DNA from: an uncultured Actinomycetes bacterium
GTDB taxonomy: Bacteria; Actinomycetota; Acidimicrobiia; IMCC26256; DASPTH01
NCBI GenBank assembly: GCA_963841415.1
Contig: CAWJCN010000004.1
Span: forward strand, 403,038 to 467,037
DNA: 64,000 nucleotides
Reading direction: 5' to 3'
Shown here one piece after another: positions 3,405 to 49,920 of this stretch. The notes under the pieces are model-generated. The model did not search any database, was not told the DNA's origin, and saw only the letters and a program-made list of their open reading frames with translations. How positions within the stretch are numbered: position 1 is the stretch's first letter; each line of letters opens with the position of its first letter. The translations under genes were made by a program, and so were the position numbers.

Positions 3405-4816
3405 GACGACTCCAGCACGCGCGCCACTCGGAACATCACCGGCTCGCCCAGTGCCGGCGCCAACACCTGGACGCCGACCGGAAGACCCGCCTCGCCGGTG
3501 CCGTACGGCACGCTGATGGCGGCGTGGCCGGCCAGGTTGGTGGGGATCGTGCACACGTCGGAGAGGTACATCGCGAGCGGGTCGGCGGATCGGGCGCCGA
3601 GCTCGAACGCGACCGTGGGCGACGTCGGCGACAGCAGCGCGTCGAAGTTCTCGTAGGCGCGCGCGAAGTCGCGGATGATCAATGTGCGCACGCGCTGCGC
3701 TTGGCCGTAGAACGCGTCGTAGTACCCCGCCGAGAGTGCATAGGTGCCGAGCATGATGCGACGCTTCACCTCGGCACCGAATCCTGCATCGCGCGTCCGG
3801 GCGTTCATGGTGGCGACATCGTCGCCGTCGACACGGAGCCCGTAGCGCACGCCGTCGTAGCGGGCGAGGTTCGACGACGCCTCAGCCGGTGCGATCACGT
3901 AGTAGGCCGAGAGCCCGTAGCGCGCACTCGGCACGCTCACCCGGTCGACGGTGGCGCCGGCCTTCTCGAGCGCACGCGCGGCGCGGTCGACGGCGTCGAG
4001 CACGTCGGGCTGGAAACCGTCACCCTCGACCAGCTCGTCGACGATTGCGATGCGCAGCCCCTCGACGCCCCGGTCGACGACCGGGAGCAACGGCTCGTAG
4101 CGCGCGTCGATCGACGTGGAGTCCATCGGATCGTGACCGGCGATCACGTCGAGCAGCACCGCGGCGTCGCTGACCGTCGTCGCGAACGGACCGATCTGGT
4201 CGAGTGAGCTCGCGAACGCCACCAACCCATAGCGCGACACGAGCCCGTAGGTCGGCTTCACGCCGACGACGCCGCAGAGCGCGGCGGGCTGGCGGATCGA
4301 CCCGCCGGTGTCGGAGCCGAGTGCGAGCGGCGCGTACTGGGCCGCCACCGCGGCGGCCGAGCCACCGCTCGACCCGCCCGGGACGCGCGACGGGTCACGC
4401 GGGTTGCGGGTGGGACCGAACGCCGAGTTCTCCGTGGACGAGCCCATGGCGAACTCGTCGAGGTTGGTCTTCGCCACGGGGACCGCGCCGGCCGCGAGCA
4501 CACGCTCCACCACGGTCGCGGTGTACGGCGGACGCCACCCCTCGAGGATCTTCGACGAGCACGTGGTGGACACCCCTCGCGTGCAGAGGTTGTCCTTCAG
4601 CGCGATCGGCACACCGGCGAGAGGACCGGGGTCGTCGCCGCCCGCGACGGTGTCATCGATCCCGTCGGCGACCTCGCGCGCCGAGTCCGCCATGACGAGG
4701 TTGCAGGCGTTGAGCTCGCCGTCGCGCGCGGCGATGGTCGCGAGGTGCTCGTCGACAATTTCGCGCGCGGAGCGCGACCCGCCGCGCACCGCCGCCGCGA
4801 GCTCGATGGCGGTCAT
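3401..4816 (-). CDS. gatA: Asp/Glu-tRNA amidotransferase subunit A
   Basis: Amidase signature [11 protein letters not shown] and [21 protein letters not shown]; gatCAB order. Confidence 0.97.
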
Positions 4817-4893
4817 CCTCTTCCGCTCTCGATGCTTCGCAACTGCTCCACCTTCGGCGAGCTCAGGCCACGCTTCGCTGCGCTCGCGCTCAC
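4813..4893 (-). repeat. MIRU-like intergenic element encoding a 26-aa relay mini-ORF
   Basis: GTG overlaps the gatC stop (GTGA) and TGA overlaps the gatA start (ATGA); shares GCAGCGAAG(G)CGTGGCC with the elements at 25477 and 49837. Confidence 0.7.
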
Positions 4894-5186
4894 GGGGCGT
4901 CGAGGATGCGCGGGACGCGGAAGCGACCGTCCTCGGAAGCGGGCGCCATCGCCAGCACCTCGTCGCGCGGCAGGCTGGGGCGCACGTGGTCGGCGCGCAA
5001 CACGTTGACGACGGGCAGCGGGTGCGCGGTGGGTGGCACGTCGTGGGTGTCGAGCGCGGCGATCTGGGCGGCGTGCTCGAGGATCACCTCGAGCTGCGCG
5101 GTGAAGTGCTCGATCTCGTCGTCGGTGAGCGCGAGTCGCGCCAGCGTCGCGACATGATCGACGTCGGCGCGCGTGAGACGGGACAC
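4890..5186 (-). CDS. gatC: Asp/Glu-tRNA amidotransferase subunit C
   Basis: [15 protein letters not shown]...FRVPRIL, 98 aa; TAGACT -10 box 7 nt before the GTG. Confidence 0.95.
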
Positions 5187-5231
5187 GACCACGAGTCTAG
5201 GAGTCGCACCCTCTTGGCTACGATGCCGATC

Positions 5232-5633
5232 GTGGCCACCTACCCGTTCCTCTCCGACGAGTGGCTCGTGGCCGTACGTGAGATCGTCGATGCGCGCGAC
5301 CTCGACATCCCGCCCCACGCGGAGCTCACGATGAACCTCGTGGTGACCGAGACGCCGTTCGGCGACGACCGTCGGTTGCACGTCGGCACCCGCGACGGCA
5401 AGGCCGACTGGGGATCGGGTCACGCCACCGACGCCGACCTCACGCTCACCACCGACTACGCGACGGCGCGGGACATCTTCATGAGCGGCAACGCGCAGGC
5501 GGGGATGCAGGCGTTCATGGAGGGTCGGGTCAAGGTGCAGGGTGATCTCACCAAGCTGATGGCCGCGCAGGTCGCCGGCACCGGCCCGGGCGCCCCCGGC
5601 CTGGCCGAGGCGCTGTCGACCATCACGGAGTAG
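5232..5633 (+). CDS. SCP2 sterol-binding-domain protein
   Basis: YPFLSDEW...QAFMEGRVKVQGDLTKLM; TACGAT -10 box 7 nt before GTG 5232. Confidence 0.85.
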   Translation: MATYPFLSDEWLVAVREIVDARDLDIPPHAELTMNLVVTETPFGDDRRLHVGTRDGKADWGSGHATDADLTLTTDYATARDIFMSGNAQAGMQAFMEGRVKVQGDLTKLMAAQVAGTGPGAPGLAEALSTITE

Positions 5634-5826
5634 CGGGGGCCTCGGCTTCCAGCTCCGCCGCCCTGACCGGCGCGAAGAAGGTCGACGGGTCGAGCGCGTC
5701 GGGTCGCGGCTCGGCGGCCAGCGCGCCCATAGGCCCGGGTCCCGGGCGTCCGGGGGCACGGCCGTAGCCGCTCGCCGGGCGGCACGGACCGGGTCTGATG
5801 GTCGCGCCGTGCGCGGGTCGCCTCAT
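5623..5826 (-). CDS. Possible small hypothetical protein (67 aa)
   Basis: GGAGG Shine-Dalgarno before ATG 5826; fills an otherwise empty gap; no recognisable motif. Confidence 0.25.
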   Translation of the reverse strand: MRRPAHGATIRPGPCRPASGYGRAPGRPGPGPMGALAAEPRPDALDPSTFFAPVRAAELEAEAPATP

Positions 5827-5913
5827 GGGATCCTCCAACCTTCCGCCCGGGAAGGACGCCCGCCGCGTCCCTCCCCGCACCAGACGACGCGTCGGGCGAC
5901 GCGTCACGCTCCT

Positions 5914-6840
5914 TCAGTCGAATCGGTACTGAGGCTGCCCGTGGGACCCTTCCGCGAGCGGGATCCGCGACTCGAGCTCGCCCGCCCGACGCGCCAGCTC
6001 GGCGACCGTCCAGCGATCGCCGTGCTCGATCACCTCGGCCAGCGTCCAGGTCTGCACTCGCTGCACGAGTCCGCCGCGCACGACGAACGTCTCACCGGTG
6101 ATCGTGCACTCGGCGGTGCTGAGGTACGCGACGAACGGTGAGACGTTCGCGGGCGACCACTCGTCGAACGTCCCGTCGTCGGGCGCCCCGATCGCGTCTC
6201 CGAGTCCAGGCGTCGACAACGTGAGCCGCGTTCGCGCGCCCGGTGCGATGGCGTTGGCGCGCACGCCGTAGCGCACGAGCTCCTTCGCCATCACCTGCGT
6301 CAGCGTCGCGATCCCCGACTTGGCCGCGTCGTAGTTGGCCTGACCGGGGTTCGAGAACAACCCCGACGTCGACGTGGTGTTCACGATCGCCGCGTTGACA
6401 TCGCGACCCGACTTCGTCTGCTCGCGCCAGTGGTTCGCGGCGAAGTGCGATGGTGCGAAGTGTCCCTTCAGGTGCACGCGCACCACCGAGTCCCACTCGT
6501 CCTCGGTCATGTTCACGACCACGCGGTCGCGCAGGATCCCGGCGTTGTTCACGAGCACGTGCAGGTCACCGAACACGTCGATCGCCTGCTCGACGAGACG
6601 GCGGGCGCCATCCCAGTCGGCGACGTTCTCGCCGTTCACGACCGCCTCGCCGCCCATGGCACGGATGTCGTCGACGGTCTGCTGCGCGGGTGTGGCGTCG
6701 GCACCACCGCCCTGCTGATCGCCGCCCAGGTCGTTGACCACGACCTTGGCGCCCTCCTGCGCGAACAGCAGCGCGTGTTCGCGTCCGAGCCCGCGCCCCG
6801 CGCCGGTGATGATGGCCACGCGGCCGTCGAGTGCACCCAT
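5914..6840 (-). CDS. SDR-family oxidoreductase
   Basis: TGAGRGLG, NNAGILRD and YDAAK motifs. Confidence 0.92.
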   Translation of the reverse strand: MGALDGRVAIITGAGRGLGREHALLFAQEGAKVVVNDLGGDQQGGGADATPAQQTVDDIRAMGGEAVVNGENVADWDGARRLVEQAIDVFGDLHVLVNNAGILRDRVVVNMTEDEWDSVVRVHLKGHFAPSHFAANHWREQTKSGRDVNAAIVNTTSTSGLFSNPGQANYDAAKSGIATLTQVMAKELVRYGVRANAIAPGARTRLTLSTPGLGDAIGAPDDGTFDEWSPANVSPFVAYLSTAECTITGETFVVRGGLVQRVQTWTLAEVIEHGDRWTVAELARRAGELESRIPLAEGSHGQPQYRFD

Positions 6841-6888
6841 CGTCGACCCCCTCGTCGTGCGGGGAGACTAGACGTGTGGCGGCCTCAT

Positions 6889-8760
<1,872 letters not shown>

Positions 8761-8837
8761 CGGCTCACGGTACCGGCCGCATCTCGCTGATCCGCGGCAC
8801 GCAGCGTGGCGACGGAAACGAGCGGGGCAGGCCCAGT

Positions 8838-8876
8838 GGCTCACCGCGGGCCGGATATCCCGGCTCGCAGTGAGCC
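8838..8876. repeat. REP-like palindrome (GCGAGCCGGG..CCGGCTCGC family)
   Basis: GGCTCACCGCGGGCCGG-ATATC-CCGGCTCGCAGTGAGCC; related cores near 10727, 21283 and 25516. Confidence 0.65.
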
Positions 8877-8909
8877 GACCGAAGAGTGGCGGCGTTAGCC
8901 TCGCTGGTG

Positions 8910-9395
8910 ATGGTCGATTCCCCTGCTGCCGCCACCCGGTCGGCACGCCGGAGGTTGTTCAGGCACCCCGGCCGGGTGGCGATCATCGCGGTCACGTTGC
9001 TCGTGGTGTTGAACCTCAGCATCATCCTCCTGAACGAATCGGACACGTCGACCGGCACCAGCAACCCGCTGCCGGCCACGGTCGAGTCGGTCGCCCCCGA
9101 GCCCGGGTCGATCGCGAGCCCGATCGACACCGTCGTCGTCGACCTCGACAACAGCCTCACCGGCGTGCTGCTCATCAAGCAGGAGGGAACCGGTTACGTC
9201 GAGATCCCCGAAGACCAACTCGACCGGGTCGTCGGGCTCGGTCAGGTCGCGTTCCGGCCCGGGCCGGACAAGGAGATCACCCGCTTCCAGCCGGGGACGG
9301 TCGACGTGGTCGTCCTGTTCTGGTCGAAGACGCGCCCCGGCGGCCGGCCGAAGCACCCCGCGAGCTACTCGTGGAGCTTCGAGGTCAAAGCGTGA
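8910..9395 (+). CDS. Membrane-anchored hypothetical protein with Ig-like/CopC-like extracellular domain
   Basis: N-terminal TM helix, VESVAPEPGS and C-terminal YSWSFEV; TAGCCT -10 box upstream. Confidence 0.7.
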   Translation: MVDSPAAATRSARRRLFRHPGRVAIIAVTLLVVLNLSIILLNESDTSTGTSNPLPATVESVAPEPGSIASPIDTVVVDLDNSLTGVLLIKQEGTGYVEIPEDQLDRVVGLGQVAFRPGPDKEITRFQPGTVDVVVLFWSKTRPGGRPKHPASYSWSFEVKA

Positions 9396-9422
9396 GCGTG
9401 AGCATGAGCGCGAGCGGAACCG

Positions 9423-10424
9423 TCAGGTCATCTGGAGGATCGCGGCGCCGCGCACGGCATCGTTCCTGATCGCGAGCAGCGCGTCGTTCGCCGCCCCGAG
9501 CGGGAACACGTCGTACTCCACGCGAATCCCCGCGACGCCGGCGAGGTCCATGAACTCCTGCGCGTCGGCGCGGGTCATGTTGGCAACCGAACGCAGCGTG
9601 CGCTCGTGCCAGAGCAGCTCGTACGGCATCGAGGGAAGGTCGCTCATGTGGATGCCGGCCAGCGCGACGGTGCCGCCGGCGCGCACTGCACCCAGCGCCA
9701 CCGGTACCAGCTCACCGGCAGGCGCGAACACCACCGCGCGGTCGCACGGTTGTGGTGGCGCATCGGCGGCGTCGCCCACCCAGGTCGCGCCGAGCTCACG
9801 CGCGAGCTCGCGGTGGTGCTCACCGCGTGTCATGACAACGACCTCGCAACCCCAGTGCCGGAGCACCTGCAGCGCGAGGTGGGCCGAGGCACCGAAGCCG
9901 AGCAGCGCGACGCGCTCGCCGGGCTGCACCTCGGCGCGCCGCAGCGCCCGGTAGCCGATCACGCCCGCGCACAGGAGCGGCGCGGCACTGAGGTCGTCGA
10001 GCCTCGCGGGGAGCCGGACCGCGAAGTCCTCGGGAACGACGACCGCGTCGGCGAAGCCGCCGTCGACCGTCCAGCCGGTGAACTCGGCCGCCACGCACAG
10101 GTTCTCCTCGCCCCGCACGCAGAACTCGCACACGCCGCACGTCCGGTGCAGCCATGCGACGCCGACGCGGTCGCCGGGCGCGAACTGCGTGCAACCGGCC
10201 CCGAGCGCGTCGACGGCTCCGACCGCCTGGTGTCCGGGAACGACGGGAAGAACTGGCAGCGCGAGGTCGCCCTCGACGACGTGGAGGTCGGTGCGGCAGC
10301 AGGCGCACGCGTGCACGCGCACCCGGACCTCACGAGGACCCGGTTCGGGATCGGTGCGCTCGACGGCCGCGAGCGGTCGCGTCGCGATCGGCGCCGCGGC
10401 CGACAGCTGCTGTGCGCGCATCAC
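9423..10424 (-). CDS. Zinc-dependent alcohol dehydrogenase
   Basis: CRTDLH, PGHQ, CGVCEFC...C zinc site, GFGASA. Confidence 0.92.
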   Translation of the reverse strand: MMRAQQLSAAAPIATRPLAAVERTDPEPGPREVRVRVHACACCRTDLHVVEGDLALPVLPVVPGHQAVGAVDALGAGCTQFAPGDRVGVAWLHRTCGVCEFCVRGEENLCVAAEFTGWTVDGGFADAVVVPEDFAVRLPARLDDLSAAPLLCAGVIGYRALRRAEVQPGERVALLGFGASAHLALQVLRHWGCEVVVMTRGEHHRELARELGATWVGDAADAPPQPCDRAVVFAPAGELVPVALGAVRAGGTVALAGIHMSDLPSMPYELLWHERTLRSVANMTRADAQEFMDLAGVAGIRVEYDVFPLGAANDALLAIRNDAVRGAAILQMT

Positions 10425-10758
10425 GCCATCTCCATCGGGCGTTCGCTCCTCGCCGGGCCGCTCATCGGATCGGCCAACTCGCTCTCGCTCACGCCATCTC
10501 CATCGGGCGTTCGCTACTCGCCGGGCCGCTCATCGGATTGACCAGCTCGCTCTCGCTCACACCATCTCCATCGGGCGTTCGCTACTCGCCGGGCCGCTCA
10601 TCGGATCGGCCAAACTCGCTCTCGCTCACGCCATCTCCATCGGGCGTTCGCTACTCGCCGGGCCGCTCATCGGATCGGCCAACTCGCTCTCGCTCACGCC
10701 ATCTCCATCGGGCGTTCGCTACTCGCCGGGATACCCGGCTCGCTCACGCTCACGCCAT
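10421..10758 (-). repeat. Tandem array of 68-bp MIRU-like units (4 full units plus 1 variant), each a mini-ORF
   Basis: Units start at 10421, 10489, 10557 (69 bp), 10626 and 10694; the minus strand reads MSESELADPMSGPASSERPMEMA* with GTGA stop/start overlaps. Confidence 0.9.
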
Positions 10759-11174
10759 CAGGGGACGACGAACGTGGCCTCACCCTTGATCGCGGCGCCA
10801 CCCGACGCGGCTCTCGTGCAGAGGAGGTCGACGTCGACCTTGTGCTCGCCGCCGTCCTCGTACTTGCGGGTGACGGTGCCGGAGCACACGACGGTGTCAC
10901 CGGGCCACACCTGCTCGCGGAATTGCACCGAGTACCGGCGCACGTTCGCAGCGCCCAGCCAGTCGGTGGCGAAGCCGGCAAGGATTCCGGCCTGCAGCAT
11001 GCCGACCGAGAACACCGACGGGTATCCCGCCGACTTGGCGAACTCCTCGTCGTGGTGGATCGGGTTGAAGTCACCAGAAGCGCCCTGGTACTTCACCATG
11101 TCGGTCCGGCTGATCGGCCCGTACTCGCGCGTGTCGGGGGCGCTCCCCTCCTGCAAGTCGTCCCAGGTTTGCAT
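10758..11174 (-). CDS. MaoC-family dehydratase (catalytic subunit)
   Basis: Hydratase motif YQGASGDFNPIHHD; TGATG coupling with the upstream gene. Confidence 0.88.
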   Translation of the reverse strand: MQTWDDLQEGSAPDTREYGPISRTDMVKYQGASGDFNPIHHDEEFAKSAGYPSVFSVGMLQAGILAGFATDWLGAANVRRYSVQFREQVWPGDTVVCSGTVTRKYEDGGEHKVDVDLLCTRAASGGAAIKGEATFVVP

Positions 11175-11626
11175 CACGATCCCTCCGTCGCGGGCTTGCC
11201 CGTCTCGATCATCGTCGTGCGCGACTCGGCAACGACCTTGCCGGTCTGGTCCTTGTACTCGGTGACCATCTCGGCGAAGCGCATGGTGCCGCCGCGCTTG
11301 CCCTCCTTCTCGTAGATCTTGTCGATCCACGATTCCGTGCTGATGACGTCGCCCGCCTTCGGGGGCGATCCGTGGAACACGAATTCCTGCCCGCCGTGCA
11401 GCAGCCGGGCCAGGTTGATGTTGAGGGACGCGGCTGGGTTCGGGAGGTCGGCCGGCGCCCAGAAGCCCGAGGCGATCAGCCACGTCGGCTCGATCACCGG
11501 CGCGGGGTCGTCGAGGTAGTCGGGGTTGGTCGTCATCGTCGCCCGTGCGAACTCCCGGATCTTCCCGCGCTCGATCGGGAACGTGTACCCGGGAAACCGC
11601 TTTCCGATCACCGAGTCGTCAACCAT
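11174..11626 (-). CDS. MaoC-like (FAS1-type) dehydratase partner subunit
   Basis: IERGKIREFARA and LLHGGQEF hot-dog motifs. Confidence 0.85.
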   Translation of the reverse strand: MVDDSVIGKRFPGYTFPIERGKIREFARATMTTNPDYLDDPAPVIEPTWLIASGFWAPADLPNPAASLNINLARLLHGGQEFVFHGSPPKAGDVISTESWIDKIYEKEGKRGGTMRFAEMVTEYKDQTGKVVAESRTTMIETGKPATEGS

Positions 11627-11662
11627 CTCTCTCCCGTGGTCCGTGGATGCGCCCGGAGGCTA

Positions 11663-13780
<2,118 letters not shown>

Positions 13781-18865: not shown

Positions 18866-19037
18866 GCTCCGGACCCGCCTGAATGCGCCGGAGCCAAGGC
18901 TCCGGACCCGCCTGAATGCGCCGGACCCAAGGCTCCGGACCCGCCTGAATGCGCCGGACCCAAGGCTCCGGACCCGCCTGAATGCGCCGGACCCAAGGCT
19001 CCGGACCCGCCTGAATGCGCCGGAGCCAAGGCTCCGG
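18866..19037 (+). repeat. Tandem array of five 33-bp units containing TGA-ATG junctions
   Basis: GCTCCGGACCCGCCTGAATGCGCCGGA(G/C)CCAAG at 18866, 18899, 18932, 18965 and 18998. Confidence 0.95.
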
Positions 19038-19075
19038 CTTCTCTCCGCTCCGAAGGCGGCCGTACCCTTTCGGGC

Positions 19076-21208
19076 ATGGGTGACAGCGAACGTCCTTCAC
19101 GGTCCGACTGGGAGGCCCTGGCCGCCAAGGAGGTCAAGGGCGACGTCGACGCCCTCACGTGGCACACACCCGAGGGCATCGACGTCCAGCCCCTCTACAC
19201 CGCCGACGACCTCGAGCAGCTGGAGTCGGTCGGGGGCCTGCCCGGCTTCGAGCCGTTCGTGCGCGGCGTCCGGGCCACGATGTACGCCAACCGCCCCTGG
19301 ACCATCCGCCAGTACGCCGGCTTCTCCACCGCCGAGGAGTCGAACGCCTTCTACCGGGCCAACCTCGCGGCCGGGCAGATGGGCCTGTCGGTGGCCTTCG
19401 ACCTGGCCACCCACCGCGGCTACGACAGCGACCATCCCCGGGTCGTCGGTGATGTGGGCAAGGCCGGCGTCGCCATCGACTCGGTCGAGGACATGAAGGT
19501 GCTCTTCGACGGCATCCCGCTCGACCAGATGACCGTCTCCATGACCATGAACGGCGCGGTGCTGCCGATCCTCGCGGGCTACGTGGTGGCCGCCGAGGAG
19601 CAGGGCGTCGACCAGGCGCAGCTCGCCGGGACCATCCAGAACGACATCCTCAAGGAGTTCATGGTCCGCAACACCTACATCTATCCGCCCGAGCCGAGCA
19701 TGCGGATCGTGGCCGACATCATCGAGTACACGGCCCGCAACATGCCGAAGTTCAACTCGATCTCGATCTCCGGCTACCACATGCAGGAGGCCGGCGCGAC
19801 CGCGGTGCAGGAGCTCGCGTTCACGATCGCCGACGGCCTCGAGTACGTGCGCGCCGCCCTCGCACGCGGCCTCAGCATCGACGAGTTCGCCGGACGGCTC
19901 TCGTTCTTCTTCGCCATCGGCATGAACTTCTTCATGGAGGTCGCGAAGCTGCGCGCGGCGCGCCTCCTGTGGTCGCGCGTCATCGGTCAGTTCGACCCGC
20001 AGAAGCCGGGCTCGTCGATGCTGCGCACGCATTGCCAGACGTCGGGCGTCTCGCTCACCGAGCAAGACCCGTACAACAACATCGTGCGCACCACCGTCGA
20101 GGCGCTGGCGGCCGTGCTGGGCGGCACGCAGAGCCTGCACACCAACTCGTTCGACGAGGCCATCGCGCTGCCGAGCGAGTTCGCCGCCCGTGTCGCGCGC
20201 AACACGCAGCTGATCCTCGCCGAGGAGACCGGCGTCACCAAGGTCGTCGACCCGCTCGGCGGCAGCTACTACGTCGAGGCGCTCACCGCGAGCCTGGCCA
20301 ACGCGGCGTGGACGCTCATCGAGGAGGTCGAGTCGCTCGGCGGCATGACCAAGGCGGTCGAGTCGGGCATGCCGAAGTTGCGCATCGAGGAAGCGGCCGC
20401 GCGCAGGCAGGCCGCGATCGACCGCGGCGACGAAGTGATCGTCGGAGTCAACAAGTACCGGCTCGCCGAGGAGGGTTCGGTCGACGTGCGCGACGTCGAC
20501 AACGCCACGGTGCGCGAGCAGCAGCTCGCGCGGCTCGCCGAGCTGCGAGCGACGCGCGACGAAGCCGCGTGCGAGACGGCGCTCGACGCGCTGCGCGAGG
20601 GTGCGCGGGGCAACGGCAACCTGCTCGAGCTCTCGATCGCGGCGACGCGTGCCCGCGCGACCGTCGGCGAGATCTCCGATGCCATGGAGGAGGTGTTCTC
20701 ACGTCACCGGGCCACGATCCGTAGCATCTCGGGGGTGTACGGCGCCGCGTACGAGGGTGACGAGGGCTACGCCCGGGTGCATGCCGCGGTCGACGAGTTC
20801 GCGGCGGAGGCCGGCCGCCGCCCGCGCATCCTCGTCGCGAAGCTCGGCCAGGACGGCCACGACCGCGGCGCCAAGGTGATCGCAACCGCGTTCGCCGACC
20901 TCGGCTTCGACGTCGACGTCGGTCCGCTCTTCCAGACCCCGGAGGAAGCGGCACGTGACGCGATCGAGAACGACGTGCACCTCGTCGGCGTGTCGAGCCA
21001 GGCGGCCGGGCACAAGACGCTCATCCCCGAGCTGATCGCCCAGCTGCGCAAGCAGGGCGGCGACGACATCCTCGTCGTGGCGGGCGGTGTGATCCCGGCC
21101 CAGGACTACGACGAGCTGCGTGACGCGGGCGTCGCCGCCATCTTCGGCCCCGGCACCAACATCCCGGAGGCCGCGGCCGAGATCGTCCGCCTGCTCCGCC
21201 GCAACTGA
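19076..21208 (+). CDS. scpA: Methylmalonyl-CoA mutase (fused catalytic and B12-binding domains)
   Basis: [17 protein letters not shown]12 motif QDGHDRG; TACCCT -10 box 7 nt before the ATG. Confidence 0.96.
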
Positions 21209-21233
21209 CAGTCGCTCCCGTACCCTCACGGTC

Positions 21234-21349
21234 GTGAGGAGACCCGCAACGTGAGCGCCCCGGTGCACGCGAGCGAACGGCGGCGGGCCGGGTGCCCCGA
21301 CTCGCAGAGAGCGAGCCATCGAGCAGGCGCCGGAGAGCGGGAAACATGA
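21234..21349 (+). repeat. MIRU-like element: two chained mini-ORFs leading into meaB
   Basis: GTG 21234 to TGA 21254 overlaps GTG 21251 to TGA 21349, which overlaps the meaB ATG; 51-nt module 44/51 identical to 25504-25554. Confidence 0.7.
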
Positions 21350-25343: not shown

Positions 25344-25476
25344 GTCACACCTCCAGGACGCGGTTCGAGCTCGCCCCCGTGCTCGCGGCCGCCAGCCGAG
25401 CGGCGCGCCCATCCCCCAGGGCGCGCCGCTCGCGCGTCCTGCGAACTGACGCGCGCACCGTTGTTACCGTGCTCGC

Positions 25477-25611
25477 ATGGAGATGCAGCGAAGGCGTGGC
25501 CGGGAGCGAATGGCCGCGAGCCGGGTACCCCGGCTCGCAATGAGCGAGCCATCGTGCCCGAGGCCGGGACGCCGGGACGCCGGAGCGGAATCGACCAGAT
25601 CGGATGGCTGA
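25477..25611 (+). repeat. Composite MIRU-like element encoding a 44-aa leader ORF coupled to the sirtuin gene
   Basis: ATG 6 nt after TACCGT; TGA overlaps the sirtuin start (ATGGCTGA); flanks match 49852-49920. Confidence 0.75.
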
Positions 25612-39551: not shown

Positions 39552-39576
39552 CACACGCGATCGCGAGGTTCTCGAC

Positions 39577-40881: not shown

Positions 40882-40900
40882 CCCTCGTCGCGTGCTAGTC

Positions 40901-41548: not shown

Positions 41549-41635
41549 CGCAGCGCGCTCGCTCACGCACCTTGACGCCACCGCACCGAAGGAACACGCT
41601 CGGACACGAGACGTCGCGGCGACCGGAGGTGTGGG

Positions 41636-41950
41636 ATGTACGCAGCACTGGCAACCGTCTCCATCAGCGACTACGAGCAGGCCCGGCGGCTGCTGCACGA
41701 CGACGTGCTGCCGACCGTCGCCGACATCCCCGGCTTCGTCTCCGGCCACTGGCTCGCTCCGGTTGACGGCAAGGGCATCGAGATCCTCATCTTCGAGACC
41801 GAGGAAGAAGCGCTCGCGATGGCGACGCAGATGCCGGCCGGTCGTCAGGTGAACGAGTTCGTCACCGTCGACGCCGTCGAGGTGCGCGAGGTGGCGGGCA
41901 ACGTCCACCAGCCCGACGACCTCCCCATGTCGATGACCTCTGAGACGTAG
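41636..41950 (+). CDS. Small hypothetical protein (ABM/ferredoxin-like fold)
   Basis: GGAGG SD; VLP.V...PGFVSGHWL...FETEE. Confidence 0.7.
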   Translation: MYAALATVSISDYEQARRLLHDDVLPTVADIPGFVSGHWLAPVDGKGIEILIFETEEEALAMATQMPAGRQVNEFVTVDAVEVREVAGNVHQPDDLPMSMTSET

Positions 41951-42020
41951 CGCGTCAGCGAGGAGTGCGTCGGTAACCCGCTCCTGGAGCCGCCACCCCC
42001 TCCGGTACCCTGACACGACT

Positions 42021-45000
42021 ATGTCGGACTTCCTCGACGCGCTCGCCGAGCGCGTGCTCGTGTTCGACGGCGCGTTCGGCACCTGGGTCCAGGACCAGGG
42101 CCTCGGCCCCGACGACTTCGGGGGGCCCGCGCTCGAAGGCTGCAACGAGCGCCTCGTCCTCACCCGCCCCGACCTCATCCGGCAGATGCACTCCGAGTAC
42201 TTCGAGGCCGGCGTCGACGCTGTGGAGACCGCCACCTTCGGCGCCTTCGGCCTCGTGCTCAACGAGTACGGCATCGCCGACGAGACCTTCGCCATCAACG
42301 AGCAAGCCGCCCGCCTCGCCAAGGCGGTCGCGGCCGACCACTCGACCCCCGACCGCCCCCGCTTCGTCATCGGCTCCATCGGCCCCGGCACGCGCCTCCC
42401 CTCGCTCGGCCAGATCGCCTTCACCGACCTGCGCGACGACTACGAGGCGATGGTCGCGGGCTTGCTCGCGGGCGGCACCGACGTCCTCCTGATCGAGACG
42501 GTGCAGGACCTCCTCCAGTGCAAGGCGGCGATCATCGGCGCCCGCCGGGCGATGGCGACCGCGGGCGTGACCGTGCCGCTCATGGTGCAGGTCACGGTCG
42601 AGACCACCGGCCGTCTCCTCGTGGGCTCGGAGATCGGCGCCGCGCTCACGGCGCTCGAAGCGCTGCGGCCCGACGTCATCGGCCTCAACTGCGCGACTGG
42701 TCCCGCGGAGATGACCGAGCACCTTCGCTACCTCTCGCGGCACGCGCGCACGTTCCTGTCGTGCCTCCCCAACGCGGGCCTGCCGTCGATCGTCGACGGC
42801 CACACGCACTACGACCTCACGCCCGAGGCGTTGGCCGACGCGCACGCGCGCTTCATCGACGAGTTCGGGCTCAACATCGTCGGCGGCTGTTGCGGCACCA
42901 CCCCCGTTCACCTGCGCGCGGTCACCGACCGGATCGGCACCCGCGCCCCGGTCGACCGCACGCCCGAGCACGAGCCCAGCTGCTCGTCGATCTACAGCCC
43001 GGTCACGTTCCACCAGGAGCTCGCCTACCTCGCCATCGGCGAGCGCACGAACGCCAACGGCTCGAAGAAGTTCCGCGAGGCGATGCTCGAAGCCGACTGG
43101 GACACGTGTGTGCAGATGGCGCGCGACCAGGTGAAGGAAGGCGCGCACGTGCTCGACGTCTGCGTGGACTACGTGGGCCGTGACGGCACCGTCGACATGC
43201 ACGAGATCGCGAGCCGCTTCGCCACGCAGGCCGCGCTCCCCCTCGTGTTCGACTCCACCGAACCGGCCGTTCTCGAGACCGGCCTCCAGCACTCCGGCGG
43301 CAAGGCGATCCTCAACTCCGCCAACCTGGAGGAAGGCGAGGACACGGGCAAGCGCTTCGACCGGGTCATGTCGCTGGCGCGTGAGTACGGCGCGGCCGTC
43401 ATCTGCCTCGCCATCGACGAGGACGGCCAGGCCCGCACCGCCGACGACAAGCTGCGCATCTGCCGACGCATCTACGACCTCGCCGTCGAGCGCTACGGCA
43501 TCGAGCCCACCGACCTCATCTTCGACATGCTCACGTTCCCGCTCGGGTCGGGCGCCGAGGACCTCCGCCGCGACGGCATCGAGACCATCGAGGCCATCCG
43601 CCGCGCGAAGACCGAGCTCCCCGGGTCGTCGACGGTCCTCGGGCTGTCGAACATCAGCTTCGGACTCAAGCCCGCGATCCGTCACGTGCTCAACAGCGTG
43701 TTCCTGCACGAGTGCCGCGAGGCCGGGCTCGACGCCGCCATCGTGCACGCGGCCCGCATCATGCCGATGCACAGGATCGACGACCACGTGCGCGAGGTCA
43801 CCCTCGACCTGGTCTACGACCGTCGCCGCGACGACTACGACCCGCTCACCGAGCTCATGGCGCTGTTCGAGGGCGTCGACGCGACTGCCGTCGAGCAGGA
43901 GGACCGATCGGGCTGGCCGATCGAGCAGCGCCTCGAACACCGGATCATCGACGGCAACCGCGACGGGCTCGAAGCCGACCTCGAGGAGCAGCTCACCTCA
44001 CGACCCGCGCTCTCGATCGTCAACGACGTGCTGCTCGAGGGCATGAAGGTGGTCGGCGACCTCTTCGGGCGTGGCGAGATGCAGCTCCCGTTCGTGCTGC
44101 AGAGCGCGGAGACGATGAAGGCCGCGGTGGGCTTCCTCGAACCGCACATGGAGAAGGCCGACGCCGGCGGGAAGGGCCGCGTGGTCATCGGCACCGTGAA
44201 GGGAGACGTCCACGACATCGGCAAGAACCTCGTCGACATCATCCTCACCAACAACGGCTACGAGGTGCACAACATCGGCATCAAGGCGCCGCTCTCGGCC
44301 TTCGTCGAGAAGGCCAACGAGGTGGCGGCCGACGCCATCGGCATGAGCGGCCTGCTCGTGAAGAGCACCTTGATCATGCGCGAGAACCTCGAGGAGCTCA
44401 ACGCCCAGGGCCTGGCCGAGATCCCGGTGCTGCTCGGCGGCGCCGCGCTCACGCGCACCTACGTCGAGCGCGACCTGCGCGAGGTCTACGACGGCCGGCT
44501 GTTCTACGGCAAGGACGCCTTCGAGGGTCTCCACACCATGGACCAGCTCATGGAGGGCAAGAAGACCGGCGTGCTCGACCCCGACTTCGGTCGTGCGCTC
44601 GGCGGCCGGATCCTGCCCCCGCGGAAGTCCGAGATGGAGGCCGAGCGCGCCGTCACCGCGGCCGCGGTGCGCTCCGATGTCGCCGCCGACGTCGAGATCT
44701 TCACGCCACCGTTCGTCGGCTCGCGCGTCGCCAAGGGCATCCCGCTCGACGACATCGCTGCCTACATCAACGAAACGGCGTTGTTCCGCAACCAGTGGCA
44801 GTTCCGACCCGACAAGTCGCTCGGTGAGAACGACACCGAGTTCAGGGAGCGGATCCGCCCCACGCTGCGCGCGCTGCTCGACGAGGCCAAGGCCGAAGGC
44901 TGGCTGGTGCCTGCGGTGATCTGGGGCTACTTCCCCGTGAACGCCGACGGCAACGACCTCATCGTGTGGACCGACGACGACCGTCGCAACGAGCGCCTGC

Positions 45001-45488
45001 GGTTCACGTTCCCGCGCCAGCGCAGCGACCGTCAGCTGTGCATCAGCGACTTCTTCCGGTCGGACGAGAGTGGCGACGCCGACTACGCCGCGTTCCACGT
45101 CGTGACCGTCGGCGAGCTCGCCAGCGCGCGTGAACGCGAGCTGTTCGCCGCCGACAAATACCAGGAGTACCTGCTCACGCACGGGTTGTCGGTGGAGATG
45201 ACCGAGGCGCTCGCGGAATTGTGGCACTGGCGCATCCGCGAGGAGTGGGGGTTCGTCAGCGAGGACGGCCCGACCCTTGCGGGGTTGTTCCGCCAGCAGT
45301 ACCGCGGGTCGCGCTACTCGTGGGGCTACCCCGCGTGCCCCGACCTCGACGACCAGGCCAAGCTCGACGACCTGCTCGAACTGCACCGCATCGGCGTGAA
45401 GCTCACCGAGGAGTTCCAGCTCGAGCCCGAGCAGAGCACGTCGGCGATCATCGTTCCCCACCCCGAGGCGAAGTACTTCACCACCTGA
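42021..45488 (+). CDS. metH: Cobalamin-dependent methionine synthase
   Basis: GLNC, GGCCGT, GERTNANGS, GDVHDIGKN, RYSWGYPACP. Confidence 0.97.
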   Translation: MSDFLDALAERVLVFDGAFGTWVQDQGLGPDDFGGPALEGCNERLVLTRPDLIRQMHSEYFEAGVDAVETATFGAFGLVLNEYGIADETFAINEQAARLAKAVAADHSTPDRPRFVIGSIGPGTRLPSLGQIAFTDLRDDYEAMVAGLLAGGTDVLLIETVQDLLQCKAAIIGARRAMATAGVTVPLMVQVTVETTGRLLVGSEIGAALTALEALRPDVIGLNCATGPAEMTEHLRYLSRHARTFLSCLPNAGLPSIVDGHTHYDLTPEALADAHARFIDEFGLNIVGGCCGTTPVHLRAVTDRIGTRAPVDRTPEHEPSCSSIYSPVTFHQELAYLAIGERTNANGSKKFREAMLEADWDTCVQMARDQVKEGAHVLDVCVDYVGRDGTVDMHEIASRFATQAALPLVFDSTEPAVLETGLQHSGGKAILNSANLEEGEDTGKRFDRVMSLAREYGAAVICLAIDEDGQARTADDKLRICRRIYDLAVERYGIEPTDLIFDMLTFPLGSGAEDLRRDGIETIEAIRRAKTELPGSSTVLGLSNISFGLKPAIRHVLNSVFLHECREAGLDAAIVHAARIMPMHRIDDHVREVTLDLVYDRRRDDYDPLTELMALFEGVDATAVEQEDRSGWPIEQRLEHRIIDGNRDGLEADLEEQLTSRPALSIVNDVLLEGMKVVGDLFGRGEMQLPFVLQSAETMKAAVGFLEPHMEKADAGGKGRVVIGTVKGDVHDIGKNLVDIILTNNGYEVHNIGIKAPLSAFVEKANEVAADAIGMSGLLVKSTLIMRENLEELNAQGLAEIPVLLGGAALTRTYVERDLREVYDGRLFYGKDAFEGLHTMDQLMEGKKTGVLDPDFGRALGGRILPPRKSEMEAERAVTAAAVRSDVAADVEIFTPPFVGSRVAKGIPLDDIAAYINETALFRNQWQFRPDKSLGENDTEFRERIRPTLRALLDEAKAEGWLVPAVIWGYFPVNADGNDLIVWTDDDRRNERLRFTFPRQRSDRQLCISDFFRSDESGDADYAAFHVVTVGELASARERELFAADKYQEYLLTHGLSVEMTEALAELWHWRIREEWGFVSEDGPTLAGLFRQQYRGSRYSWGYPACPDLDDQAKLDDLLELHRIGVKLTEEFQLEPEQSTSAIIVPHPEAKYFTT

Positions 45489-45577
45489 TCCCCGTCGTTC
45501 GCTCCGCTCACTCCGTCCCAGCGGACGAGCACCGGCGGAGCCGGCTGCTCATCCGGATCGCCGGACCGCGCCTCAGC

Positions 45578-47074
45578 TCAGCTCCGGCTCGGCGGGCGGC
45601 ACTCGAGGAACACCTGGGGAACCCGGCTGCGCAGCGCGGCCAGCGCGTCGGCGTCGGGCGCGGCGTTCGGGTTGTCGGTGAGCGCCTGCAGGATCGGAGT
45701 GAACACGGGGTCGCGCACGAGCGTGTCGCTGCTGCACACGGCGACCGGCACCCCGGCGCCTTGCTTGAGCACCTCGAGGAAGAGCTCGTCGCGGATCGCG
45801 GCGAGGGTGAGCGCACCGACCGCCCGGTTGGGCGCCTCGGTGCTCGCTGCACCGGGGTCACAGGTGGTCAGCGTGATCTGCTTCCCCGTCTCGACCGCGG
45901 CCGAGCCCGCCGGCATCGCGGCCGCCCACTGGGTGAGCGCCTCGCCGATCGCCTTGGTCTTGGCACGGTTGCGGCCGACGAACGCGCTGCGGAGACAGGT
46001 CGTCTTGTCGCGGGTGAAGGCGACCATGGCGTCGCCACCCCAGCCGTCGGCCGCGCTCAGCGCGGCCGCGGGGTCGATGCGCGACGCGAGCACCTGGTAG
46101 AGCGAGAACGCACCGAACGAGTCCGGCTGGCCCACGCGCTTCTCGCCGGCCCGCAGCTTGGGCGTGCTCACCGTGGTGAAGTGGCTGCCGTCGAGCAGCG
46201 TCGACGGCGTGAGGAACGCGCTGTCGCTCGTGGGCGGGTGCTCGAAGAGCTTGTCGATGCCCGCGACGTGCTGCTTGGCGATCACCGAGTCGAGCATGAT
46301 CGGCCCGAGGTCGTAGGGCGCCTCGAAGAACACCTGCAACGACTCGGGCACGTCGGCGTCGGTCGCCTCCTTGCGCGCCTCATCGCTCTGGGCGCTCGAC
46401 TCCGACTCGTACGCCGCCCGCTCAGCCTTCGACAGCGTGTCGACGTAGTCGTTCTGGATGCGCACCGCGTCACCTTCGATGATCGTGCGGAGCACGGTGG
46501 ACGAGTGCGTCTTCGCCGCATCCTTCTGCAGTTTGGTGAGATCGAAGTGCTGGTCCTGCAGCGCGTGTGTGAGCTCGTGCGCGAGCGTGACCTTGGTGGC
46601 GATGTCGTCGAGCTTCTTTCCCTTCACGGTGACGCTCTTGGTGGTGTTGTCGTAGTAGGCGAGCACGCCCGACTTCTGCAGCGAGCTGGTGGCGTCGAGG
46701 AGGTCGACGTCGTTCCCGATGAGGCCGACCGCGCGGAGCTGGCTCTGCGACTGCTCCGCGTCGCGCTTGTCGGCTGCCGTGAGCTTGCCCTTGTCGACGG
46801 CGACCTTCTTCTCGAACGCGGCTTCGGAGAGGAACTTCACCGCGACCGGATGCTCGAAGGACAACTTGCGGAGCTTCTCGACCTCGCGGGCGATGGGCGC
46901 GATCCGGGGGTCCCAGCGCTTCGGGGTGGGTGCGACGGTAGGCGGCGCGGTCGTCGGCGCGGTCTTGGCCCCGGCAGCGCCCCCGGCGACGCCGAGCACC
47001 GAGACGACCAGCGCCAGGACCATCACACTCCGACGAGTCCCCAGTGTGATGCGGCCGATCCGCGCGCTCGTCAT
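45578..47074 (-). CDS. Secreted putative zinc metallopeptidase (HEXXH)
   Basis: Signal peptide, LAYYD, AHELTHALQDQHF, EGDA, WGGD. Confidence 0.8.
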   Translation of the reverse strand: MTSARIGRITLGTRRSVMVLALVVSVLGVAGGAAGAKTAPTTAPPTVAPTPKRWDPRIAPIAREVEKLRKLSFEHPVAVKFLSEAAFEKKVAVDKGKLTAADKRDAEQSQSQLRAVGLIGNDVDLLDATSSLQKSGVLAYYDNTTKSVTVKGKKLDDIATKVTLAHELTHALQDQHFDLTKLQKDAAKTHSSTVLRTIIEGDAVRIQNDYVDTLSKAERAAYESESSAQSDEARKEATDADVPESLQVFFEAPYDLGPIMLDSVIAKQHVAGIDKLFEHPPTSDSAFLTPSTLLDGSHFTTVSTPKLRAGEKRVGQPDSFGAFSLYQVLASRIDPAAALSAADGWGGDAMVAFTRDKTTCLRSAFVGRNRAKTKAIGEALTQWAAAMPAGSAAVETGKQITLTTCDPGAASTEAPNRAVGALTLAAIRDELFLEVLKQGAGVPVAVCSSDTLVRDPVFTPILQALTDNPNAAPDADALAALRSRVPQVFLECRPPSRS

Positions 47075-47132
47075 CCGGCCAACGACGCTACCGGGCCGGA
47101 TCACTGGCACCGGCGCGGGCGTGGCACCCGGA

Positions 47133-48648
47133 TCAGGCCGGGTTCGACTCCTGGCACTGCCGGATGATCTCAGGCACGCGTGCCTGTACCGCGGTGATCA
47201 GGGCGGGGTCGGGTTCGGCGGTCGGGTCGTTGCCCGCAGCCTCGATGGCCGGTGCGAACACCGGATCGCGCACGAGCGTGTCAGCGCTGCACGTGGCCAC
47301 CGCCTCCGGTGCACCTTCCTTCAGGAGCTCAGCGAAGAACCCATCACGGTTCACGACGAACGCGAACGACGCGTTCGGCTTGTTGGGAATCGCGGTGCCG
47401 GCCGCGCCAGGGTCGCAGGCGGTCAGCGTCACCCGATCGGCGGTGCCGTTGACGGTCACCGTTCCGGCCGGCATCTGCGCCGCCCACTTGTTGAGCGCGT
47501 CGGTGATGGTCGCGGTGCCGTCGGTGCCACGACCGGCGAACGTGGCACGGAGGCACGTCGTGCCCTTCCGCGTGAAGGTCACCATGGAGTCGCCGTCCCA
47601 GGCATCGGCAGCGGTCAGCGAGGTCGCGTTGTCGAGCCGCGGACGCGAGCACCTGGAAGAGCGAGAACGATCCGAATTGGTCGGGCTTGCCCGAGCGCTT
47701 CTCGCCCGCCACCAGCGCCGGCGTCTCGACGGTCTGGAACGCGTGACCGTCGAGCAACGTCGTCGGCGTCACGAACGTGGCATCGGCGACAGGCGGGTTG
47801 GCGAACAGCGCATCGACTCCAGCGGCCTGGCTCGTCGCGGCCACCGCGGTGACCATCGGCTGCCCGAGTGCGTACGGCATCTGGAAGGCCGTCGTCAACG
47901 TGTCCGGGACGCCCTTCGCGGTGATCTCGGCCTGCGCCTGCTTCCCGGTCGCGGCGTTCTCGGTCGTGTAGGCCTGCTGCTCGTCGGCGGAGAGCGAGTG
48001 CTCGTAGTCGGTCTGGATTCGCACTGCGTCCCCCTCGACGAGTGCGCGCAGTGCCGTCGACCCGTGGAGGGGCTTCGCCGCCTTCTCCAACTTCTGGAGG
48101 TCGAAGTGCTGGTCCTGGAGCGCGTGCGTGAGCTCGTGCGCCACGGTCACGCGGGTCGCGACGTCGTCGAGGTTCGTCCCCTTGACGGTGATCGTCTTCT
48201 TCTTCGGGTCGTAGTACGCCAGCACCCCGGACTGTTGGAGGGATTCGATCGCCTTGACGATGTCGACGTCAGAGCCGATGAGTCCGAGCGCACGCAGTTG
48301 GGCCTGTGCACGCGCGATGTCCGCCTTGTCGTCCTTCGCCAGCTTGCCCCGGTCGACCGCCACCTTCTTCTCGAAGGCGGCGTCGTCGAGGAACTCGGCG
48401 GTGACCGGGTGGTCGAAGGTGAGGCCGCGCAACTCGGCGACCTTGTCGGCGATCGGCTGGAGCCGAGGGTCCCACGCCGTGGGTACGGTCGTGGTGGTGG
48501 TGGTGGTCGAGCTGGTCGTGGTCGTGCGCTTGGCCGACGCGGCCGGCGCGAGCAGGAACGTCGCCAGCAGCGCGGCCACGAGAACGACCATCGCCGCACG
48601 CGCAGAGCGCGCGGGGCCGATCCGACCCCAGAACCCAGTCCCCGTCAT
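47133..48648 (-). CDS. Paralogous secreted HEXXH protein (single-base frameshift near 47640)
   Basis: Same motifs as the neighbour; the two track ORFs 47344..48810 and 47133..47585 join into one colinear paralog if one base is removed. Confidence 0.78.
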
Positions 48649-48753
48649 GGCGGCGGACCCTAGTGGGGCCGGTCGCGGCGGTAGGGTCACCCCACGTGAC
48701 CGGTTGACCACGAGGACGCGCCTCCGGGAGGTCCCGCCTACCATGCTCCGACG

Positions 48754-49836
48754 ATGAAGGGTCTCATCCTCTCCGGAGGCGCGGGGACGCGCCTGCGGCC
48801 CATCACCCACACGAGCGCCAAGCAGCTCGTGCCGGTGGCCAACAAGCCGATCCTCTTCTATGGCATCGAGGACATGGTCGCCGCCGGCATCAAGCGCATC
48901 GGCATCGTCGTCGGCGAGACGGCCCCTGAGATCCGGGCCGCGGTGGGCGACGGGTCACGCTGGGGCGCCGAGATCACCTACATCCCGCAGGACTCGCCCC
49001 GCGGCCTGGCTCACTGCGTGCTCATCGCCCGCGAGTTCCTCGGCAACGACGACTTCGTGGTGTACCTGGGCGACAACATGCTGCAGCAGCGGCTCGACGG
49101 ACTCGTGGCGGCGTTCGAAGCCGAACGCGCGGCGGCGCCGGACCAACTGGCGGCCCAGCTCCTGCTCGCGCACGTCGAGGATCCGCGCCAGTCCGGCGTG
49201 GCGGTGCTCGGCACCGACGGCGAGGTCGTGCAGCTGATCGAGAAGCCCGAGGACCCGCCGTCAGACCTCGCCATCGCGGGCGTCTACCTCTTCGGCCCGC
49301 GCGTGCACGACGCCGTACGGGCCATCACGCCATCGGCGCGGGGCGAGCTCGAGATCACCGACGCCATCCAGTGGCTCGTCGACCAGGGCTTCCGGGTGCG
49401 CCACGAGATCCTGCAGGGCTGGTGGATCGACACCGGCAAGAAGGATCCCCTGCTCGAGAGCAACCGGCTCGTGCTCGACACGATCACCGAGCGGTTCGAC
49501 GGATCGGTCGACGACGAGTCGCGCATCGAGGGCCGCGTCGTCATCGAAGCCGGCGCCGAGATCGTCCGGTCGACCGTGCGCGGGCCGACGATCGTCGGCG
49601 AGCGGACGCGTGTCGTCGACAGCTACATCGGGCCGTACACGTCGGTGGCGTCCGACTGCGAGATCATCGACTCGGAGCTGGAGAACTCGGTGTTGCTCGA
49701 TCGGAGCCGCGTCCTGTCGGCGGGACGGATCTCCGACTCACTCATCGGGAAGGACGCCGAGGTGGTCCGCTCGGAGGCAGCACCGCGCGCCACGCGTGTG
49801 ATGCTCGGCGACCACTCCCGGGTGGAGCTGGCCTAG
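48754..49836 (+). CDS. rfbA: Glucose-1-phosphate thymidylyltransferase (long form)
   Basis: GGAGTRLRPITH, AKQLVPVANKP, RGELEITD. Confidence 0.93.
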   Translation: MKGLILSGGAGTRLRPITHTSAKQLVPVANKPILFYGIEDMVAAGIKRIGIVVGETAPEIRAAVGDGSRWGAEITYIPQDSPRGLAHCVLIAREFLGNDDFVVYLGDNMLQQRLDGLVAAFEAERAAAPDQLAAQLLLAHVEDPRQSGVAVLGTDGEVVQLIEKPEDPPSDLAIAGVYLFGPRVHDAVRAITPSARGELEITDAIQWLVDQGFRVRHEILQGWWIDTGKKDPLLESNRLVLDTITERFDGSVDDESRIEGRVVIEAGAEIVRSTVRGPTIVGERTRVVDSYIGPYTSVASDCEIIDSELENSVLLDRSRVLSAGRISDSLIGKDAEVVRSEAAPRATRVMLGDHSRVELA

Positions 49837-49920
49837 ATGGAGCGCGTGTGGTGGAGATGCAGCGGAGGCGTGGCCGGAGGCCGGGACGCCATAGCGGAAT
49901 CGACCAGTCGTAGTGGCTGA
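49837..49920 (+). repeat. MIRU-like element encoding a 27-aa relay mini-ORF between rfbA and rfbC
   Basis: ATG abuts the rfbA TAG; TGA overlaps the rfbC start (GTGGCTGA). Confidence 0.75.

Follow-up and report, generated by a model that had tools for sequence, protein, structure and literature searches.

The 64,000-nucleotide (nt) stretch of DNA analysed here (the window, C4:403038-467037) belongs to the genome of an uncultured actinobacterium, which comprises 4.6 Mb in 6 contigs with a GC content of 70%. The closest named relatives of its MeaB protein were Acidimicrobiia metagenome-assembled genomes (MAGs), with identities of up to 77%. At six gene junctions of the window, an earlier examination of the letters alone (the sequence-only reading) had described intergenic mini open reading frames (mini-ORFs) whose ends overlap the neighbouring genes. 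All six sets of coordinates were correct, and five of the junctions belong to repeat families dispersed over the genome, whereas the sixth, upstream of scpA, is a local hairpin duplication. The window holds five local cases of lineage-specific, structured, dispersed and tandemly amplifiable repeats that would probably hand ribosomes on from one reading frame to the next.

A relay unit sits exactly on a gene start codon, opens with its own ATG or GTG and has no in-frame stop, and the codon that ends it overlaps the following start as TGATG, GTGA or ATGA. The spacing of the units is 3n-1, and tandem copies therefore chain. The start of the unit replaces the old gene start, either on the upstream stop in an operon or 6–9 nt behind a -10-like TANNNT box, an arrangement typical of leaderless mRNAs.

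Tandem arrays were found with Tandem Repeats Finder, and AB and H units were collected genome-wide with iterated nhmmer. Eighteen arrays had a period of 62 nt, four of 119 nt and two of 56 nt, and further periods were 55, 59, 65, 68, 71, 86, and 89 nt; many arrays were internally 97–100% identical. The genome contains at least three families. Family AB (about 62 nt) was represented by 186 units, about 20 of which contained a nested hairpin insert of about 57 nt, and family H (about 56 nt) by 127 units; H was also nested inside AB, which resulted in units of 119 nt. AB and H units combined made up 203 loci. Family C (about 50–86 nt) comprised 32 units with the 3′ end GAGAGCGG-N6-[AG]TGA. A cmscan search of the whole window against Rfam at E ≤ 1 returned no family match, with one chance-level snoRNA match elsewhere. 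A further intergenic repeat, at C1:773295-773641 (67 nt, 5.2 copies, 100% identical), had no relay chain and was unrelated to AB, H or C.

The reading frame of the units was analysed for family AB on the last unit of each locus, which gave 103 full-length units out of 116 loci. The relay subtype, in which the unit starts with ATG or GTG, accounted for 44 of these 103 loci. A stop/start motif was located within about 20 nt of the 3′ anchor in 41 of the 44, and it was in frame in 41/41 (p = 3e-20). Unit bodies of 55 nt were paired with tails of 5 or 8 nt (15 loci) and bodies of 56 nt with tails of 4 or 7 nt (26 loci), with no exception; the two bodies differ by 1 nt in the loop, and the hairpin insert (+57 nt) extends them to 112 or 113 nt. 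Among 55 unique relay units, the ORF frame contained 0 stop triplets vs 15 and 11 in the other frames. The variant GTAGCG, likewise, was present in 5 of the 10 units in which it falls outside the ORF frame and in 0/32 of those in which it would create a stop codon (p = 3e-4). The start at the exit opened an ORF of at least 80 codons in 38/41 loci, and the next gene was co-stranded in 44/44. Of the exit motifs, 27/41 read [AG]TGG, and the units were bounded by ATG(G) at both ends. The H exits were in frame in 24/32 cases (p = 2e-6), with hairpin expansions of 12 or 15 nt, and an exit motif was found in 30/32 C units, 25 of which opened an ORF of at least 80 codons.

The frame used for the 3′ half of the unit is not the same in 55-nt and 56-nt bodies; a functional peptide product was therefore rejected, and the peptides appear not to be the point of the units. 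By inspection, the variable sites of AB also had no codon periodicity.

Stop/start overlaps are frequent in this genome, being present at about 29% of ordinary gene starts (627/2185) and about 32% of ordinary stops (502/1550). At the repeat loci, exit overlap was observed in 65/101 cases and entry overlap in 78/121. The expectation that the overlaps exceed chance held at the family level, for AB, H, and C, and failed for a single junction.

Strand and placement followed the same pattern. In co-directional spacers, 141 of the 153 AB/H loci were in the sense orientation and 12 were antisense (p = 4e-29). Among the 200 loci outside gene calls, which formed the basis of the placement counts, 33 were in divergent spacers, and convergent spacers were depleted (13/200 vs a background of 726/4426). 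Intergenic arrays with a period of 40 nt or more numbered 49, and in 32 of them the period equalled 2 mod 3 (p = 5e-6). When 4-nt, 1-nt or abutting stop/start junctions were counted as links, 30 of the 49 had an unbroken ORF chain on one strand and not on the opposite one; in 29 of these 30 the chain was on the strand of the downstream gene. Random frame relative to the flanking genes had been named in advance as one of the results that would speak against a relay, and the genome-wide copies were random neither in frame nor in strand. A chain statistic over whole spacers (68/141 repeat loci vs 202/1019 control spacers of 50–500 nt) was set aside, because long upstream ORFs in GC-rich DNA inflate the control. 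One non-relay AB array, at C4:365041-365413, consists of 6 units at 62 nt, and its chain uses an ATGA in the hairpin loop instead of the unit ends.

Two modes of entry into the units were recognized. Of the 42 first units of the AB relay loci, 20 were located within 15 nt of a co-directional upstream stop. Among the remaining 22, a TANNNT box was positioned 6–9 nt before the ATG in 16, vs 334/2486 (13%) of ordinary starts, defined as called starts whose spacer measures 60 nt or more (p = 5e-10). The proposal that the repeats also occupy leaderless starts was thereby borne out for the whole genome. A Shine-Dalgarno-like motif was rare before the genes that follow relay units (6/44 vs 340/989). 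At the 334 ordinary starts with a TANNNT box, it was found 4–10 nt upstream and mostly at 6–7 nt, which suggests that this organism has many leaderless mRNAs.

The repeat elements of the window, together with the gene whose start was revised, are as follows.

4813-4893, minus strand: gatC-gatA mini-ORF, inserted, 26 codons, with GAGAGCGG-N6-ATGA at its 3′ end (family C).
10421-10760, minus strand: MaoC-ADH array of five H units (one of 56 nt, four of 68–69 nt), between the genes for a MaoC-like dehydratase and a zinc alcohol dehydrogenase (ADH).
18866-19083, plus strand: scpA repeat, a 33-nt tandem hairpin (GCTCCGG..CCGGAGC) in 5.2 copies, upstream of TACCCT-N7-ATG of scpA.
21221-21349, plus strand: meaB insert, with TACCCT (21221-21226), 7 nt, GTG 21234, and then two mini-ORFs.
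25465-25611, plus strand: sirtuin insert, with TACCGT (25465-25470), 6 nt, an AB unit at ATG 25477, and a nested H-type hairpin insert.
49837-49920, plus strand: rfbA-rfbC unit, one AB unit between the gene for an rfbA-like nucleotidyl transferase and rfbC.
49913-50479, plus strand: rfbC (dTDP-4-dehydrorhamnose 3,5-epimerase), Pfam PF00908, start GTG 49913 (VADVVESDVI).

Pfam searches of the flanking genes identified GatC, MaoC-like dehydratase, zinc ADH, methylmalonyl-CoA mutase, MeaB, Sir2, nucleotidyl transferase, and RfbC. Walking along the sequence confirmed that in five of the six junctions the first start lies on the upstream stop or behind a TANNNT box. Shared modules, also proposed by the sequence-only reading, were recovered as well: AB is common to the rfb and sirtuin junctions, and a hairpin insert of 51 nt (86%) is common to the sirtuin and meaB junctions. 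The MaoC-ADH and sirtuin inserts both matched the H model, and the gatC-gatA and meaB inserts have only the short family-C 3′ end in common.

At the gatC-gatA junction, GTG 4893 overlaps the TGA of gatC as GTGA, and TGA 4815-4813 overlaps the gatA ATG 4816 as ATGA. The SCP2-domain ORF at 4986-5633 on the plus strand overlaps the gatC region (4890-5190, minus strand); the SCP2 gene itself probably begins further downstream. The MaoC-ADH junction had been described as one ORF; instead, it is a chain of 7 mini-ORFs across the five H units. All links in this chain except one are TGATG or GTGA, and the last stop (TGA 10423-10421) overlaps the ADH starts GTG 10424 and ATG 10421. In the meaB insert, an ORF of 6 codons is linked through GTGA to an ORF of 32 codons, which ends in an ATGA on the meaB ATG 21346. 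The longer ORF holds both the hairpin-insert module and the family-C 3′ end.

The sirtuin insert encodes an ORF of 44 codons. Its AB unit carries a direct duplication of 8 nt (GCCGGGAC, 2.6 copies) at 25563-25583, which shifts the frame; as a result, the ORF stops at TGA 25609-25611, 5 nt inside the sirtuin ATG 25604, and not on a TGATG. An element of about 115 nt at 25344-25460, which adjoins the stop codon of the gene preceding the sirtuin gene, contains two GC-rich hairpins. It is kept in at least 12 congeners, has no Rfam match and may be a terminator or a small RNA. In congeners G013, G002, and G004, an extra 1.2–1.4 kb, which looks like an inserted gene, separates this conserved element from the sirtuin ATG.

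At the rfbA-rfbC junction, the canonical ORF of the unit runs from GTG 49851 to TAG 49911-49913 and overlaps the rfbC start GTG 49913 as TAGTG. The ORF at 49837-49920 in the sequence-only reading (27 codons, TGA 49918-49920) exists and abuts the TAG of rfbA; however, it is a second frame and not the canonical one. The true start of rfbC is GTG 49913 and not the called GTG 49922, in agreement with the N-terminus of the congener protein (MADVIA.SDVI).

The repeat upstream of scpA differs from the others. It contains five abutting mini-ORFs (TGA/ATG) at 18883-19083, the first ATG of which is 18 nt beyond the stop of the upstream gene, and the last TGA is 5 nt inside the scpA ATG 19076. No second copy was found anywhere in the genome, and the repeat stands outside the dispersed families. 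ATGGGTGA belongs to the coding sequence of scpA in all 11 of the 11 congeners with an alignable junction, and TACCCT-N7-ATGGGTGA is conserved among them; the seemingly overlapping stop is thus formed by codons 2–3 of scpA itself. The start/stop overlap at this junction is likely to be coincidental.

Comparison of the junctions with 15 congeners, the number of alignable genomes differing from junction to junction, revealed both filled and empty sites. Empty sites, which the sequence-only reading had proposed to look for at orthologous junctions, were found as direct stop/start overlaps or as leaderless starts. Filled and empty sites were seen at 5 junctions, and the sole repeat at both ends was ATG(G)/TGATG(G), which is also the functional motif. 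Of the 14 genomes aligned at the rfbA-rfbC junction, 5 carry a single AB unit there. TGATG was present at both ends in three of them; in G005 the entry is TGATG and the exit TAGTG, and in the genome of the window the entry is a TAG/ATG abutment. The empty junction is a direct TGATG in G004 and G002 and TAGATG in G007. In G001, an ORF of 5 codons at this place resembles a footprint, that is, two ends of an AB unit left by a deletion.

The gatC TGA is located 5 nt before the gatA anchor, with a direct GTGA/ATGA overlap, in 6 of the 14 aligned congeners. Most of the others have short in-frame starts, and in G006 the junction holds a mini-ORF of 7 codons with the same 3′ motif. At the MaoC-ADH junction, the genome studied here has 5 H units and G004 has 1; the remaining aligned congeners have none, and their spacers measure 13–36 nt. 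A non-repeat mini-ORF of 7 codons with GTGA or ATGA at both ends occupies this junction in G009, G003, and G011, and the stop/start grammar is therefore not limited to repeats. At the leaderless genes, the sirtuin start in congeners reads TA[ACT]CG[TG]-N6-7-ATGGCCGA[CT] without an insert, and the meaB start in five congeners directly reads TAC[CG]CT-N7-[AG]TGAG. The sirtuin and meaB inserts begin exactly at the ATG of the congeners' box-N6-7-ATG. In G003, G009, and G011, an insert of about 100 nt follows the same leaderless ATG of meaB.

The AB units also share a predicted hairpin. Across 101 unique units and 11 predicted pairs, 97.1% of the cells were canonical, vs 83.8 ± 0.7% in column shuffles and 20–56% in slid structures. 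Seven of the 11 pairs change on both sides (e.g., G-C 47/C-G 44 and T-A 75/C-G 21), and G-T cells outnumbered A-C cells by 19 to 5, which points to the sense strand. In the non-relay AB subtype, the same fold is preserved through compensatory changes. By eye, the AB hairpin is internal to the unit and not terminal. The hairpin of family H hardly varies between copies. When five junctions were folded thermodynamically on both strands, the z-scores ranged from -1.6 to +1.7, no better than shuffles. The covariation implies an additional sequence- and structure-specific role of the AB hairpin, in propagation or at the RNA level.

The 23-nt motif at the AB 3′ end was found in 155 copies in this genome, vs 0 when reversed, in 15/15 congeners (4–162 copies) and in 5 of 9 genomes of other genera of the family. 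Beyond the family, it was detected in 2 of the 16 other families sampled and, in a class-wide sample, in 3 of 23 further genomes from the order; none of the 77 genomes sampled from other orders of the class contained it. A Y1 transposase of the RAYT/IS200/IS605 type (PF01797) had 0 matches in this genome, which is 94% complete, and controls were detected in 6 of 14 genomes. No target-site duplication beyond ATG(G) was noticed by eye in the unit listing.

The conserved fold is central to a different explanation, in which the units act chiefly in cis as structured elements, either as RNA or as single-stranded DNA, and the phased mini-ORF is a secondary accommodation and not their function. Such elements might serve a lineage-specific protein or RNase as a site of binding or processing, or be the structure that a mobilising enzyme recognises. 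The canonical and covarying pairs, the excess of G-T over A-C cells, the fold retained in the non-relay subtype, and the occurrence of the 3′ motif in every congener and in other genera and families of the order all speak for it. It leaves the frame rules, the lack of in-frame stops and the placement on start codons unexplained, however; single sequences folded no better than their shuffles, and neither an Rfam family nor a Y1 transposase was found. As the primary account, this explanation appears rather unlikely, and it and the relay are not mutually exclusive.

Another way to obtain the overlaps without selection for translation would be integration at ATG/TGATG, followed by recent copying of intact master units. 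The presence of ATG(G) on both flanks, the [AG]TGG at most AB exits and the near identity of units within many arrays agree with such a by-product, and the filled sites of mycobacterial interspersed repetitive units (MIRUs) are described as carrying tetranucleotide direct repeats in the available part of a 2011 review (PMC3184786). Yet the tail sequences vary between loci and the frame is always kept; the TAG variant is absent only where it would be an in-frame stop, and the inserts have lengths that are multiples of 3. Moreover, three unrelated families and one array with a hairpin-loop ATGA converge on one grammar, and no target duplication above ATG(G) was seen by eye. We consider this by-product explanation improbable. 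Chance is still less credible, to the point of being very improbable as a general account. DNA of 70% GC leaves short stretches open, [AG]TGA is common at gene ends, and overlap base rates of 29–32% leave room for coincidence, as in the scpA case; the family-level tests nevertheless refute it for AB, H, and C, so that it stands for the scpA repeat only.

Several observations weigh against the relay itself. The enrichment of overlaps at the level of junctions is only about 2-fold over a base rate of about 30%, and the copies share ancestry, so the p-values overstate their independence and the intact frames could partly descend from a few master copies. The non-relay subtype, which has no unit start codon, makes up 59 of the 103 full-length AB loci; in 33 of these 59 an exit overlap is missing, and in 18 the gene that the unit faces is on the opposite strand. 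The relay is therefore a property of subtypes and not of the whole AB family. In family H, 46 of the 111 loci were partial hits, and among 41 full units with a start codon the exits were out of frame in 8 and without a motif in 9. Within the window, a 1-nt insertion (T) in unit 3 of the MaoC-ADH array leads to a premature TAG at 10584-10582, with the next ATG 10 nt on. Among the congeners, the H unit of G004 at the same junction is 55 nt long and out of frame, and the rfbA-rfbC unit of G009 runs in frame into rfbC without a stop. The covarying AB hairpin was left unaccounted for by the sequence-only reading. The gene calls and starts came from a rough custom caller, which missed gatC and misplaced the rfbC start. 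Among the public sequencing runs screened for this organism, none contained more than 0.08 of the sampled words, and from two metatranscriptome and two DNA runs nothing but short contigs was obtained, which covered conserved genes and came from other organisms. One contig from an RNA library joined the unit end 25596 to the unit start 25477 with 6 letters between; it indicates tandem AB units in some relative, may reflect DNA carry-over, and was not used as support.

Taken together, the checks of frame and strand and of empty sites favoured the relay interpretation, whereas the scpA repeat outside the families, the broken chain at MaoC-ADH, and the non-relay majority of AB narrowed it. We infer ribosome hand-on as the best-supported mechanism. 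A ribosome arriving from the upstream gene, or loaded on a leaderless 5′ AUG, would translate the mini-ORF and thereby melt the hairpin of the unit. It would then terminate at the overlapping stop and re-initiate at once on the next unit or gene. Insertion would be nearly neutral for the expression of the downstream gene, which would allow the repeat to persist and spread, and the length of the array may modulate the number of ribosomes that arrive.

The closest known counterpart of this design is found in mycobacteria. In the parts of the reviews available, MIRUs are described as repeats of 40–100 bp in 40–50 copies that are transcribed in polycistronic mRNA, with ORFs overlapping the adjacent genes and with filled and empty sites (PMC3184786); they appear to insert at start codons, with the internal ORF coupled to the gene at -4 spacing, and short ORFs may exist solely for ribosome delivery (2025 review, PMC12548453). 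Set beside these partial descriptions, the repeats studied here are similar in design: they are intergenic, 40–100 bp long, present in dozens of copies and often tandem, and share the orientation of the operon genes on either side. The overlap of the internal ORF ends with the neighbouring genes is shared by the AB relay subtype and not by the non-relay one. Insertion at start codons, filled and empty sites among relatives, and GC-rich internal inverted repeats are further points in common, as is a variable copy number, which here differs between species (5/1/0 at MaoC-ADH and 1/0 at rfbA-rfbC) and not between strains.

Several differences from MIRUs were also evident. The host belongs to an Acidimicrobiia lineage and not to Mycobacterium, and the AB motif was detected only in certain families of a single order. 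One grammar is common to at least three sequence families, and the overlaps are mostly of 1 nt (TGATG) besides those of 4 nt. Many units occupy leaderless starts after a -10-like box, a trait absent from the MIRU descriptions as far as these sources were available, and the AB fold is backed by covariation and accompanied by an abundant non-relay subtype. The sequence-only reading had proposed a MIRU-like system in a non-mycobacterial host; the design is indeed MIRU-like, in a different class of Actinomycetota, with ribosome hand-on as its putative function. The features added to this design are the systematic occupation of leaderless starts and the covarying fold. Nothing relevant on MIRU-like repeats outside mycobacteria or in Acidimicrobiia was found in the literature searched, with subscription journals outside the coverage.

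Repetitive extragenic palindromic (REP) sequences and bacterial interspersed mosaic elements (BIME), which are associated with RAYT, are likewise short, GC-rich, intergenic hairpin repeats in many copies, sometimes clustered. Unlike these, no Y1 transposase was found here, and the units are sense to the genes and phased with the reading frames; they are placed on start codons and not after the stops of convergent genes, and convergent spacers were depleted. The repeats also resemble delivery ORFs and bicistronic designs, in which, according to the part of the 2025 review available (PMC12548453), the only role of a small ORF is to bring the ribosome to an overlapping start and to override RNA structure. 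The difference is that here the delivery ORF rides on a mobile or amplifiable repeat and is chained up to 7 times.

A more far-reaching scenario, which we put forward only tentatively and regard as doubtful, is that the repeats are start-codon-homing elements. Their insertion machinery would recognise the initiation site, either a coupled stop/start or a leaderless 5′ AUG, with the AB hairpin as the recognition structure, and the mini-ORF chains would have been co-opted across a whole order of Acidimicrobiia as evolvable dials of ribosome flux, setting operon stoichiometry and leaderless output.

The idea of coupled ORFs in MIRUs rests on one genus and is described as likely, not shown, in the available parts of the sources. 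The repeats described here would add a second and probably independent system with well over 100 natural replicates, and they extend the idea to leaderless genes. They also bring controls of their own, namely subtypes with and without the relay, variants in which the frame is compensated, sites that are filled or empty, and arrays that range from 1 to 7 units. If the hand-on is real, automatic annotation of such genomes needs care, as the units mislead start calling, for instance at rfbC. Termination-reinitiation would, moreover, be efficient enough for several chained rounds, and even the base pairs under the strongest constraint in an operon would be open to mobile DNA.

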